From Marinovum sp. (lineage in GTDB: Bacteria > Pseudomonadota > Alphaproteobacteria > Rhodobacterales > Rhodobacteraceae), in assembly GCF_034669705.1 (NCBI RefSeq), contig NZ_JAXMOR010000002.1:50601-114600 (forward strand): DNA of 64,000 nt, read 5' to 3'. The position numbers and the translations under genes were made by a program. Every line of letters starts with the position of its first letter. Within the stretch, counting starts at the first letter, position 1. Of this stretch, positions 22,501 to 26,863 are shown piece by piece. Below the pieces are notes generated by a model. The model was not told where the DNA came from. It did no database searches and saw only the letters and a list, made by a program, of their open reading frames with translations.

Positions 22501-23430
22501 CTAGTAATGCACCGTCACGACAACGCTGTCGCCATAGCTACCTGCCGGCGCCTGCTGACCCGCGTGGATGCGGCCATAGACCGTGAACCTCTGGCCATAG
22601 CCGGTGCCGGTGGCGCTGTTGCGCTGGTTGGCCGCCTCGCCCCAGACCAGGCTGCGGGCAGGGTCGCGGTAAAGCCCGTAGGCCAAGGTGCCCAGCGCCC
22701 CCTGCATCCGCCGCAGTGCCGGGTCCGACACGCCGGGCCCGTCCCCCAGGCCCATCGAGACCGAATACCCGGTACCCGAGGTGCAACGGATATCGACCGC
22801 GGCAGTGGCGTCCGCCGGAGCGGCGAGGTTGCTGATCTGACCGAAATCGAGCGATCCGACATCCAGCTCGCAGCTCGCCACGGTCTGCGCCGAGACGGCG
22901 AAATCCGACACCGGGTGGCTCTGGCCGAAGAGCTCGCAACTGACGATGCCGTAGCTCATCTCGATATGCGGCAGTCCGGAGAAGGTCGACTGGTAGGCGC
23001 CGGTGACGAACTCGGTGCCATTCGCCAGCAGCTCGGCATAGATCGGGATCGTCACCTGTCCGGCAGAGCTGACCACGGCAACCGGCAGGTAGACCTCGTT
23101 CAGCGTGCCATGCACCGCACCGTGTCCGCCAAGGCGCAGCTGATAGGCCAACGACTGGCCGGTCGGGCCGGACATGAAGCGCGGCGCATTGCCGGGCCCT
23201 GCCCCGCCGCTGCCGGCACCGAAGCGGAGGCAGACGCCAACCGTCTCGTTCAGGAGACCCGCGCAGGTCACGGTCAGCGTCCCGGAGGTGCGGTTGACCT
23301 CGCCGGAGCGCAGGCTGACGGCGCCGAAATCGATGTCGCTCATGTTGGCTTCGCAGGTCGCTGCGCGCAGCGGCGTGGTCATCAGCAGGAGGAGGCACAG
23401 GGCCGCGATGACAACCAGGATACGCAGCAT
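22501..23430 (-). CDS. Two-domain spore coat U/CsuE-like pilus tip adhesin
   Basis: Signal peptide, two SCPU-like domains (C...IDFG, C...LDFG, YGLYRD, YGRI), ends VTVHY; ATG overlaps the usher stop (TGATG). Confidence 0.85.
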   Translation of the reverse strand: MLRILVVIAALCLLLLMTTPLRAATCEANMSDIDFGAVSLRSGEVNRTSGTLTVTCAGLLNETVGVCLRFGAGSGGAGPGNAPRFMSGPTGQSLAYQLRLGGHGAVHGTLNEVYLPVAVVSSAGQVTIPIYAELLANGTEFVTGAYQSTFSGLPHIEMSYGIVSCELFGQSHPVSDFAVSAQTVASCELDVGSLDFGQISNLAAPADATAAVDIRCTSGTGYSVSMGLGDGPGVSDPALRRMQGALGTLAYGLYRDPARSLVWGEAANQRNSATGTGYGQRFTVYGRIHAGQQAPAGSYGDSVVVTVHY

Positions 23431-25829
23431 CAAAGGCACTCCACCGGATCGATCACCGCCTGCAGCGCCGCCGAGGGGCGGTAGGCGAAGCGCGCGGTAC
23501 AGGTCCCGCCGGCGATCTCGGCGGTGATGCTGTTGCTGGCTGCGGGCGTCTCGATCCAGGCCTCGCCGTCATAGCCGACATAGGTCTCCGAGCCGCTGCC
23601 GTTGACATGGATCACCGTGCCCGCCGGCAGCACCGCGCCGCTGGCATCGCGCAGCACCGCCAGCACCCCGCCTTCGGTCGTGCCGCCAAAGCTGACGTAG
23701 TGCCCGGCCCCGCGCGCCGGCACCATCTCGGCCGCCGAGACGCCGAGCGAGGCCGTGTCAGGCAGGTCGCGCACATTGACCGAGAGCCGGTTGCGGCGAT
23801 AGGCGTTGAGCCCGTTGACCAGCACCCGTCCGCGGGCATTGGTGCGCGCCACCGGGCGATTGTCGAGATAGACCGGCACATCTGAAACGCCGAGGTCGAC
23901 CACCGCGAAGCCGTCCTTCACGGTATTGCCCATGGCGAACTCGCGCCCTGCAAGCGCCGCCGCGCCGTCGATCTGGCCGCGCAGATAGGCTCCGTCTCCC
24001 TGGGTCTGAACCTCGGCCGTAAGCTCGCCGTAGCGGCTGCGGTAGTCGCCCTTCAGCCGCACCGGCACCCGGTCGCCGCGCTGCGCCGCCTGCAGGTGAT
24101 AGCCCCAGGCGCCGATGCCCTCGCCGCGGGTCCGGCTGAGGGTCAGGTCGCGGGTCTCGCGGCCGGTGCTGTCGCGATAGGCGGTGGCCTGGCCATGGGT
24201 GCGCTTGCCCAGCTTCATCGACAGGCCGGCCGTGATCCGGGTGTCGTGGGTCTCGAAGCTGTAGCTGCCGTTGAGGCTGAAGGCGCCGCGCCCGCCGCGG
24301 ATCGGCGTGCCAAAGGAGATCGAGGCCAGTTCGTCGCGCGAGGTCTCGCGGCGGGCGCTGACATAGGACAGGCCGAGCCGACGGTTCGACTTGCTGAACG
24401 GAATCGACAGGCTGACCACGTCCTGCGCAAGCGGCACTTCGAGTAGCGAGCCGGCGGTGCCGCCGGAGGTCTCGAGGTAATCGAGCCCGGTGACATAGGC
24501 GAGATCGGCAAAGCCCGGGTCGGTGCGGCTGCTCGAGGTGCGGAGATCGACCTTGCCGATCTGGGTCTGCAGGTCGAGTTGGGCGAAATTGCCTGTGCGG
24601 CCCATGAAATCGCTGCTTGCCAGCGCCAGCCGCACCTCGCCCAGTGACAGCGGCACCGCGGTCAGCCCCACGCCCGCCAGCTGCAGCCGGTCGGTGGCGC
24701 CGAAATGGCCGTCGACGGTCAGCGTCTTGCTCAACCCGTAGCGCAGGCTGGCGGTGAAGATACCGTCGTTGCCGTAATCGTTGCTGGTGACGCCAAAGCC
24801 TTCGCGGGCGCGGCCAAAGGCCAGCGCATAATCCGCCATCCCCGGCTTGAGCAGCCCGTCGGAGCTGAAGAAGCTGACCGTGCGCCGGCTGATCCGGCCA
24901 TCGATGCCGCGCACCACGATCTCGGCGTCGCCGCCACCCTGCACCGGCACATCCTCGAGCCGAAAGGGGCCATCGGTGACATTGGCGGAAAACACCCGGC
25001 TGTTCTCGATGAAGACATCGACCGACGAGGGCACCGCCGCGGCGCCGGAATAGGAAAACCGCTGGTCGGTCACCAGATCCCTGCGCAGCGAGAAGTCCCG
25101 CCGCAGCTCGATGCCGGCCATGCGGATCGGCCGGGTCCAGCTGGGCCCGGCGGTGGTGAAATCGCCCAGCGTCAGGCTCAGCGCCGGTTCCGGCAGGTCG
25201 GTGGTGAACGAGGTCTCGAGCCGCAGCGAGCGGGCCTCGCCCCCGGGGCCGAGGTCTTGGGTGAAATAGCCTGAACTCGCCAGCCGGCCCAGCGGCGCAA
25301 ATACCCAACCATCGAGGTTGGCCGAGAGGGTGCCGTCGTAATGTTCGAAACTGTCGCCAAAGCCGGTGTCACCGACCAGCGAGTAATTCAGCACCGCACC
25401 CCAAGCGCCTTCGGAGGCTTCGAACTCGGGCGCAAAGGCGGCCGAGACCACTTCTGGCAGCAGGCCGTCATGCGGCACGGCGATATGAATCAGCTGGTTG
25501 GCGGGATCGTATTGATAGCTCAGCCCCTCGATCGACGAGAGCCGCACCATCCGAGCGGTGCCGAGCGGCGGCCGGATGCCCAGCTCCTGCAACTCGCTGC
25601 GCGGCGCGGCCATGTTGCTGCCGTCGAGATCGGCCGAGAACTCGGCGATCAGCTCGGTGTCGAGCCCGTTGACCGTCACTGCGAGATAGAGCGGCACCGC
25701 TTCAGCGTCGAGGTCCTCTGACACCTCGGCGGTGAGCAGCAGATCGGACATCATGTCGGTCTGGGCCACCGCGGCAGTCAGCCCGAGGCCTATGGCGCCG
25801 GCAGTGAGGGTCAAGCGGATCGCATACAT
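23430..25829 (-). CDS. Fimbrial outer-membrane usher (CsuD/PapC-like)
   Basis: VLNY, RLET, GIELRR, PSSVDVFIEN, GPF, DG, TNARG motifs, C-terminal Cys pair; GGAGA RBS. Confidence 0.92.
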   Translation of the reverse strand: MYAIRLTLTAGAIGLGLTAAVAQTDMMSDLLLTAEVSEDLDAEAVPLYLAVTVNGLDTELIAEFSADLDGSNMAAPRSELQELGIRPPLGTARMVRLSSIEGLSYQYDPANQLIHIAVPHDGLLPEVVSAAFAPEFEASEGAWGAVLNYSLVGDTGFGDSFEHYDGTLSANLDGWVFAPLGRLASSGYFTQDLGPGGEARSLRLETSFTTDLPEPALSLTLGDFTTAGPSWTRPIRMAGIELRRDFSLRRDLVTDQRFSYSGAAAVPSSVDVFIENSRVFSANVTDGPFRLEDVPVQGGGDAEIVVRGIDGRISRRTVSFFSSDGLLKPGMADYALAFGRAREGFGVTSNDYGNDGIFTASLRYGLSKTLTVDGHFGATDRLQLAGVGLTAVPLSLGEVRLALASSDFMGRTGNFAQLDLQTQIGKVDLRTSSSRTDPGFADLAYVTGLDYLETSGGTAGSLLEVPLAQDVVSLSIPFSKSNRRLGLSYVSARRETSRDELASISFGTPIRGGRGAFSLNGSYSFETHDTRITAGLSMKLGKRTHGQATAYRDSTGRETRDLTLSRTRGEGIGAWGYHLQAAQRGDRVPVRLKGDYRSRYGELTAEVQTQGDGAYLRGQIDGAAALAGREFAMGNTVKDGFAVVDLGVSDVPVYLDNRPVARTNARGRVLVNGLNAYRRNRLSVNVRDLPDTASLGVSAAEMVPARGAGHYVSFGGTTEGGVLAVLRDASGAVLPAGTVIHVNGSGSETYVGYDGEAWIETPAASNSITAEIAGGTCTARFAYRPSAALQAVIDPVECL

Positions 25830-25889
25830 GGCAGGTCTCCGGCGCCGCCGTCCGACGAGGGCAACGCCGCCTTGGAGGTCAGGGATCGG

Positions 25890-26333
25890 TCACGACGAAA
25901 AACACAGCGGCACCGAGTGGCGCACCTGAAGTTTCACGGCCTTGCCGGACTGCTCCTTGCCGGGCAGCCGGTCGACCAGCACGCGGTAGCATTCCTGCCC
26001 CCGCACCGGGCGCCGGTTGGTTCGCACCACGCGCACCGTCAGCTCCTGCCGGGGACGCAGCTTGGCGATCGGCGGGCTGACCACCACATCACGGGTGGCG
26101 CTGACCCGGTCGGGGCCATGCCGCGGGTTCCAAGCCACCACCCGCAGCTGCACGACCGAGAGCTCGCGGCCGCCGGCCTTGATCGTCAGCGTCGTCTGCT
26201 GGCCCTTGCCGGGCACCGCCAGACGCGTCGGAGAGACCGACACGCTGTCGGCCAGTGTGAGGCCGGGCGCCGAGATCAGCGCCGCAGCCAGAAGCGCGTG
26301 TTTCGCGCCGTAGAGGAACCTGGAAATTGTCAT
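25890..26333 (-). CDS. Fimbrial chaperone, PapD-N domain only (147 aa)
   Basis: Signal peptide, VSPTR, VVSPP, QELTVRV, YRVLVDRLP, HSVPL; stops right after the G1 strand. Confidence 0.85.
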   Translation of the reverse strand: MTISRFLYGAKHALLAAALISAPGLTLADSVSVSPTRLAVPGKGQQTTLTIKAGGRELSVVQLRVVAWNPRHGPDRVSATRDVVVSPPIAKLRPRQELTVRVVRTNRRPVRGQECYRVLVDRLPGKEQSGKAVKLQVRHSVPLCFSS

Positions 26334-26365
26334 GAATCTACCTTTTCGATTAATTGCACGGGCCA

Positions 26366-26863
26366 TTAGTTGGTGCCGTAATTCAGCGTCACCAGCAGCG
26401 TGTCGTCATAGGTGCCGGCGGTGTAGCTGCCCGCGGGGATCTGGCCGTAGACTTGGATCGCCTTGGGGGTCAGCGCCTGGACCGCGCCGGAATAGACCGC
26501 ATCGTTGACCCCGACCTCGGTCGAGCGGGCACTGGAATCAAAGACCTTGTAGGGCATCAGCGCGCCGCTGGTGGACTTCATGTGGCGAGCGCCGCCGCTG
26601 ACATTCGAGCCGCCGCCGAGCGTGACAGAAACTGACTGGTGCGTCCCGGTGCAGGTCACCGTGATCAGGCCCTGGGTGGTCTCGTTGGTGGCTTGGCTGG
26701 TGCTGATCGAGGCAAAGCTCATGCCGGTCCCGGCAGCCAGAAGACAGGTGTCGGCGACGATCGCCTGTACCCCGAGGTTGGCGGTGGATTGCGCGGCACT
26801 GGCAGGTGCGGCAAGGATCGAGAGAGACAGGCAGAACGCGCCTGCGAGCAGTTTGGTGGTCAT
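26366..26863 (-). CDS. Major pilin, spore coat U/CsuA-B-like
   Basis: AAGGAG RBS, signal peptide, Cys pair (DTC...VTC), YGQIP, YDDTLLVTLNY. Confidence 0.88.
   Translation of the reverse strand: MTTKLLAGAFCLSLSILAAPASAAQSTANLGVQAIVADTCLLAAGTGMSFASISTSQATNETTQGLITVTCTGTHQSVSVTLGGGSNVSGGARHMKSTSGALMPYKVFDSSARSTEVGVNDAVYSGAVQALTPKAIQVYGQIPAGSYTAGTYDDTLLVTLNYGTN

Follow-up and report, generated by a model that had tools for sequence, protein, structure and literature searches.

The gene at positions 26333..25890 (minus strand) of the window, by which we mean the whole 64,000-nucleotide stretch of Marinovum sp. DNA that was analyzed, probably specifies a working periplasmic chaperone that naturally has a single domain and serves an archaic (Csu/SCPU-type) pilus. 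That it acts as a chaperone is deduced from homology, conservation, its place in the operon, and its status as the only copy. To our knowledge, the structurally described chaperones of chaperone-usher systems are all two-domain boomerangs. The short protein represents an architecture that is genuine, conserved, and unexpected within a known system, and natural chaperones can apparently do without the second domain. Literature searches on single-domain or truncated chaperone-usher chaperones, on PapD-like single-domain proteins, and on alphaproteobacterial archaic chaperone-usher systems returned nothing relevant, and the database names that these proteins carry (e.g., "fimbrial biogenesis chaperone") are automatic.

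In archaic and alternative systems, domain 2 is directly involved in subunit anchoring (PMC4654587). If our reading is true, conserved sole-copy single-domain chaperones would mark domain 2 as dispensable and would define a minimal donor-strand-complementation module, which could be used in engineering pilus display. The family would also provide a small system for dissecting subunit capture and handover to the usher, with two independent domain losses and two-domain sisters that share a Cys pair as natural controls. It would bear, in addition, on how the abundant marine bacteria of the Roseobacter group build adhesive fibres; in a field study of two uncultured Rhodobacteraceae lineages, one expressed the SCPU-pilin genes of an SCPU-type chaperone-usher system at a higher level in situ (PMC10203303).

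The chaperone gene lies in an archaic (Csu/SCPU-type) chaperone-usher operon of four genes, all on the minus strand, that encode a pilin, the chaperone, an usher, and a tip subunit with two SCPU domains. The major pilin gene (26366..26863) belongs to an open reading frame of 187 aa that extends to 26929, with a likely start at MTTKLL (26863) and an SCPU domain (Pfam E = 9.9e-23). Between the chaperone and usher genes lies a spacer of exactly 60 bp (25830..25889), with GGAG ahead of the usher ATG at 25829. The outer-membrane usher (23430..25829) is intact, is 799 aa long, and matches Pfam Usher (E = 1.3e-36) and PapC_C (E = 7.5e-07). It is followed by a 312-aa subunit (22501..23439) that ends in VVVTVHY and is probably the tip or adhesin, with SCPU matched in two stretches (E = 5.2e-42). 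Pfam finds Usher and PapC_C in the next gene and SCPU in both flanking genes, so that SCPU pilins and an usher share one operon with the chaperone, as is characteristic of archaic chaperones.

Read from the upstream ATG (26366), the minus-strand reading frame at 25890..26366 encodes 158 aa; the second ATG at 26333, with AAAGGTAG just before it, yields a chaperone of 147 aa. The upstream in-frame ATG overlaps the pilin stop codon as TAATG (26364-26368), and the downstream ATG has the better ribosome-binding site and agrees with the lengths of the homologues. Residues 1 to 28 (26250..26333) are a predicted Sec signal peptide with a putative cleavage site between GLTLA and DSV, leaving a mature protein of ~119 aa; this region is modeled by AlphaFold2 as a helix (residues 4 to 20) of low pLDDT and is variable among homologues. 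The C terminus reads ...KLQVRHSVPLCFSS and ends in HSVPLCFSS, with the TGA at 25892..25890, and the chain stops 3 aa past the G1 strand. Exactly two Cys are present, C115 in QECYRV (codon 25991..25989) and C144 in PLCF (codon 25904..25902). A preliminary description of this DNA had reported the same length and C terminus, the 60-bp gap, and the positions of the two Cys at the start of F1 and the end of G1, all of which we read from the sequence as well.

The only Pfam domain in the chaperone is PapD_N (E = 6.6e-15; residues 42 to 155 of the 158-aa form, profile positions 2 to 119 of 126), and a domain of ~100 aa cannot fit into a spacer of 60 bp. The window's genome (99.9% complete) holds one PapD_N match, which is this gene, and zero Pfam matches to PapD_C. 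Since Pfam PapD_C barely detects the archaic domain 2 (only PF00345 is recorded for the two-domain relatives), the empty PapD_C result says little by itself, and a family-specific profile was built on 24 domain-2 sequences taken from the closest relatives that have two domains. This profile found nothing at E ≤ 10 in the three near-complete genomes that carry the short form, namely the window's genome, G054, and G100; in the positive control, the two-domain genome G059, it scored 1e-23. PapD_N likewise matches nothing but the short gene in G054 and G100. The view that domain 2 is absent rather than frameshifted is thus borne out by the small gap, the PapD_N-only architecture, and the lack of a domain-2 match in the genome, and the dependence on another full chaperone that would have spoken against it is removed as far as sequence searches in three genomes can remove it. 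A frameshifted or read-through domain 2 was considered as well and is excluded, there being too little space for it and zero match in six frames.

An AlphaFold2 model computed with a 120-sequence alignment contains one confident Ig-like domain (mean pLDDT of 84), with blocks of the mature part at ~88 to 96. By DSSP, strand F1 spans residues 113 to 123 and strand G1 spans residues 137 to 146, reaching the C terminus. The F1 assignment (QECYRVLVDRL, 25965..25997, including C115 and R117, the latter at 25985..25983) is consistent with the alignment to CsuC and with residue invariance. The loop between F1 and G1 (~124 to 136) and the start of G1 have a lower pLDDT (~71), which is what a free donor strand should show. 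The top Foldseek matches are to domain 1 of CsuC (6fq0 and 5d6h; E of about 1e-10, best 1.6e-10; 25 to 26% identity), followed by domain 1 of FimC, Caf1M, SafB, and others, and when PDB sequences were searched with a family profile, the alignment covered CsuC residues 9 to 120 (E = 4.8e-18).

CsuC (PDB 5D6H, 6FQ0, and 6FJY), which serves the archaic Csu pilus in Acinetobacter baumannii as chaperone, is therefore the best match in both structure and sequence, and it shares the operon logic of SCPU pilins and usher. With CsuC residue numbers and donor residues taken from Pakharukova et al. 2015 (PMC4654587), P87 in the D1 strand, the invariant proline of the superfamily, aligns with Pro59; R117 aligns with Arg89, the carboxylate anchor of domain 1; and S140 aligns with Ser117, which hydrogen-bonds Arg89. 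In the short family P87 is invariant, and R117 and S140 are invariant or nearly so. The donor segment of G1 (residues 132 to 146, AVKLQVRHSVPLCFS, 25896..25940, including S140 and C144) keeps the alternating donor residues, with V133, L135, V137, and H139 at the positions of Val110, Phe112, Met114, and Tyr116. In archaic chaperones the register-shifted G1 donor motif closes with a conserved aromatic at P0, which is Tyr116 in CsuC (PMC4654587), whereas the residue here is His139; the P0 position is H in 78% and Q in 20% of the short clade and Y, H, or Q (38, 34, and 20%) in the two-domain relatives. CsuC differs further in having Ser87 at the position of C115, with no role reported for it and no F1-G1 Cys pair, and in its tandem Ig-like domains, the second of which provides Tyr196 and Arg174. 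The short chaperone has the PapD_N Ig-like domain with its proline but neither the C-terminal Ig-like domain that forms the cleft of the PapD-like boomerang nor a counterpart of the Tyr196/Arg174 pair.

Among 5.8 billion proteins searched, 209 homologues were recovered; the 120 listed have lengths of 107 to 164 aa, contain no Pfam domain but PF00345, and belong to Marinovum, Aquicoccus, Roseovarius, Sulfitobacter, Lentibacter, Cypionkella, Loktanella, and other Rhodobacterales. More than 125 homologue clusters from ~60 Rhodobacterales genomes end 1 to 5 residues beyond PLCF, and 129 sequences with the Cys pair end within 12 aa of the motif. The alignment of 120 clusters has 18 invariant columns, 21 more at ≥90%, and an identical end point. 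A scan of a genome collection, which is biased in that its search patterns included Cys motifs, located 60 short-chaperone loci, all in Rhodobacterales. The complete operon of pilin, short chaperone, usher (~795 to 810 aa in a single alignment), and tip subunit is present in ~55 of the 60. The SCPU pilin is kept upstream of the chaperone in ~50 related loci and the tip subunit downstream of the usher, with chaperone-usher spacers of 7 to 145 bp. The short chaperones evolve under purifying selection, the mature part having a dN/dS of 0.05 to 0.12 in most of the closest pairs (dS of 0.2 to 0.55). A strain-specific truncation, which the preliminary description had expected to show itself in closest homologues of ~230 to 250 aa, is ruled out by the conserved end point, the intact operons, and the purifying selection; the homologues that the description had called for, ending at the same place with both Cys in intact operons, exist in ~55 Rhodobacterales loci.

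The short form is nevertheless a clade-specific exception: of 400 alphaproteobacterial genomes sampled evenly, 16 have a related chaperone, and in every one of these but the window's genome its open frame is 243 aa or longer. Its spread within its own family is patchy (4 of the 151 genera sampled). Both architectures coexist within one family, as genome G059, from the window's family, carries an ordinary two-domain chaperone of 235 aa with Ala and Phe at the Cys positions (L005, 1477-2184). At six loci (L007, L032, L035, L048, L063, and L064) the usher is shortened or aligned in several pieces, the one of Roseovarius sp. C7 being interrupted over about 1 kb; these breaks may be pseudogenes, insertions, or assembly errors.

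An exhaustive profile hidden Markov model search of 1.84 billion cluster representatives separated the relatives into sharp tiers. Short proteins with the Cys pair make up the top tier; at E values of about 1e-35 and weaker, the matches are two-domain proteins of 235 to 245 aa with S, A, N, or T at position 115 and Phe at 144. The exceptions are P0124 (246 aa; L066, 905-1645) and P0193 (241 aa), true two-domain proteins with both Cys. Their operons are of the same type, and the usher that accompanies P0124 has 802 aa, versus 799 aa in the window. The two-domain archaic chaperones of other Alphaproteobacteria (e.g., P0124, P0193, and L005) are ~45 to 53% identical in domain 1 and resemble the short forms in the four-gene operon and, for P0124 and P0193, in the Cys pair. 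They alone have the domain 2 of ~100 aa with its conserved GYVLG, and they keep E113, Q70, and, except in the Cys-pair forms, F144. The tyrosine motif GYVLG in domain 2 reads AVVLG in P0193.

A tree of domain 1 was inferred by a quick search from 116 columns, with the two Cys columns removed, and was rooted at the midpoint. In it, the short sequences with the Cys pair group into a single clade (SH-aLRT of 95), which is nested in a Cys-pair clade (SH-aLRT of 97) whose only other members are P0124 and P0193. Because these two proteins carry the pair and branch just outside the short clade, the Cys pair is older than the domain loss, a conclusion that needs only a root among the 129 two-domain outgroup sequences. 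P0124 and P0193 look like evolutionary intermediates, and the tree is read most simply as a Cys pair gained by a two-domain ancestor, followed by a single loss of domain 2.

Three short representatives without Cys fall elsewhere in the tree, as a separate clade among the two-domain proteins (SH-aLRT of 97); single-domain chaperones thus arose at least twice. A search with one of these, P0219, retrieved ~105 more proteins of 140 to 145 aa that have PapD_N only and a Cys-free mature part. They originate from Hyphomicrobiales (e.g., Hoeflea, Brucella endophytica, Pseudorhizobium, and Flavimaribacter), and their C terminus, RHAIPLYFE(P), reaches the same structural end point, with Y, H, or R at position 144. 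In one complete example (L068, 472-900), an open gene of at least 465 aa with no recorded annotation follows directly and, judged by its position, is probably the usher. The second family is thus like the first in its single PapD_N domain and end point and unlike it in forming its own clade and having no Cys; a disulfide is accordingly unnecessary for the single-domain state.

Both C115 and C144 are invariant or nearly so across the short-family alignments. Side-chain parity assigns Y116, V118, and V120 of F1 and V141, L143, and F145 of G1 to the core, so C115 and C144 share the outer face, which would look toward the cleft and domain 2. The DSSP strand ends in the AlphaFold2 model (113/146 and 123/137) are compatible with an antiparallel register that places 115 opposite 144. 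In a register scan based on mutual information with average product correction (APC), this register has the highest mean covariation, much of which is the 115-144 pair itself, confounded by phylogeny, although the result holds without that pair, via 123-136 and 125-134. DsbB and four proteins of the DsbA family are encoded in the window's genome as well. Strand limits, side-chain parity, and covariation together make it likely that C115 and C144 lie opposite each other on F1 and G1 and form a disulfide; the Arg89-Ser117 hydrogen bond of CsuC leaves some room for a register shift of two residues, with the Cys then diagonal instead. The suggestion that the two Cys are cross-strand neighbours is therefore probable. 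As to the further suggestion that they staple a purposely minimal chaperone, the staple is the part that stands, a disulfide being likely; the tie to the minimal architecture is loosened by the presence of the pair in the two-domain P0124 and P0193 and by its absence from the second short family. That the pair is an adaptation to the domain loss is rejected, the pair being older than the loss.

A conserved F1-G1 disulfide is known from the FGL subfamily of classical chaperones (Caf1M, SafB, and DraB), where it is required for the chaperone-subunit complex (PMC4133393, Table 2). The likeness extends to the presence of Cys on F1 and G1; the FGL chaperones differ in having two domains, an F1-G1 loop of ~24 residues, an N-terminal extension, and classical pilins (PMC4133393). 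Here, in an archaic lineage, the loop is about 10 residues long and the mature N terminus begins at A1. The FGL Cys on G1, which we take to align with S140 (partly on the basis of Caf1M numbering), would lie 4 residues before C144. Given the archaic lineage, the short loop, and a G1 Cys four residues farther along, we regard the pair as analogous and not homologous to that of the FGL chaperones. Membership in the FGL class was considered and rejected, as the long loop and N-terminal extension are both lacking.

The two short families have diverged from the two-domain proteins at several of the same positions. Position 144 is Phe in 96% of the two-domain sequences, Cys in 100% of the short Cys-pair clade, and variable (Y, H, or R) in the second short family. 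Position 113 is Glu in 94% of the two-domain sequences, R, Q, or E in the Cys-pair clade, and R, K, or T in the second family; the two-domain P0124 and P0193 retain Glu there. In the C1-D1 hairpin, which extends toward domain 2 in CsuC (PMC4654587), position 70 (Gln in 92% of the two-domain sequences) is variable in both short families, and position 73 (Gly in 91%) is variable in the Cys-pair clade and G or N (58 and 31%) in the second family. All four positions (144, 113, 70, and 73) presumably face domain 2. The opposite trend is seen at position 97, which is E or D (33 and 28%) in the two-domain proteins, Glu in 100% of the Cys-pair clade, and Glu in 99% of the second family. The exchange of Glu for Arg, Lys, or Gln at residue 113 (window positions 25995-25997) thus occurs in both single-domain families, and Glu97 is fixed in both; these parallel changes may represent convergent compensation for the lost domain 2.

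In CsuC, the carboxylate of the subunit is anchored by Arg89 of domain 1 and by Tyr196 and Arg174 of domain 2, and mutagenesis indicates that Tyr196 and Arg174 matter for subunit capture, Y196F being as damaging as R89A (PMC4654587). The short chaperone keeps all contributions of domain 1 and lacks two of the three known anchors, both from domain 2. Natural single-domain forms are unexpected for this reason, as two of the three carboxylate anchors sit in CsuC domain 2. Residue 113, His139, or dimerization may replace the lost anchors, or they may have no replacement at all. The preliminary description had taken domain 2 to be the usher contact, a premise at odds with the archaic literature, which puts a predicted usher-binding patch on domain 1 and documents domain 2 as a carboxylate anchor (PMC4654587).

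The mechanism that we propose would have the lone Ig-like domain do the job of CsuC domain 1 after Sec export. G1 (V133, L135, V137, and H139) and A1 would complete the SCPU pilin fold by donor-strand complementation, and R117, held by S140 as Arg89 is by Ser117 in CsuC, would bind the C-terminal carboxylate of the pilin. A conserved hydrophobic patch on the G1-F1-C1-D1 sheet would then dock the complex on the usher, where donor-strand exchange would free the chaperone. Domain 2 would have been lost once, in an ancestor of the Rhodobacterales-wide clade that already had the Cys pair at the start of F1 and the end of G1. In its most likely state, oxidized to a disulfide, the pair would clamp and stiffen the base of the donor hairpin. 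With somewhat more confidence than doubt, we favor the reading that an Ig domain of ~119 residues suffices for capture, assembly competence, and usher targeting. On this reading, the minimal state was reached at least twice in Alphaproteobacteria, with the same remodeling both times (Phe144 replaced, Glu113 changed to Arg, Lys, or Gln, and the C1-D1 hairpin unconstrained), and the Cys115-Cys144 clamp would be a preadaptation of one lineage rather than a requirement.

Two copies of the chaperone, or the chaperone together with part of the usher or of the tip subunit, might instead rebuild a two-lobed cleft in place of domain 2. A substitute is plausible, given that domain 2 supplies two of the three CsuC anchors (PMC4654587), and the change from acidic to basic or neutral residues at positions 113 and 122 in both short families could reflect a new interface. 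We nevertheless consider this unlikely: the usher matches that of a two-domain Cys-pair chaperone in domains and in length, the operon has no extra conserved gene, and the positions that face domain 2 turn variable instead of staying conserved. It is very unlikely that another periplasmic protein, unrelated or highly divergent and encoded elsewhere, stands in for domain 2 in trans. Such a partner may escape profiles, as Pfam sees the archaic domain 2 poorly, but the family-specific profile that recovered the control was empty in all three genomes, and the loss of constraint at F144, Q70, G73, and E113 counts against a domain-2-like partner that still docks. A decaying operon whose short gene persists as a fixed pseudogene remnant and plays no part as a chaperone, as the patchy distribution and the six fragmented ushers might suggest, is most unlikely in view of the identical end point and invariant columns of the 120 clusters, the intact usher and both pilins in ~55 loci, the low dN/dS in most close pairs, the independent second family of the same architecture, and the in situ SCPU-pilin expression in a Rhodobacteraceae lineage (PMC10203303, where chaperone size is not mentioned).

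A further observation concerns the C termini of the pilins. The major pilin in the window ends in LLVTLNYGTN, three residues past the C-terminal aromatic (26366-26377). Most homologous pilins terminate exactly at Y or H, a subset has GP, AP, or TGP tails, and the tip subunit terminates exactly at Y.
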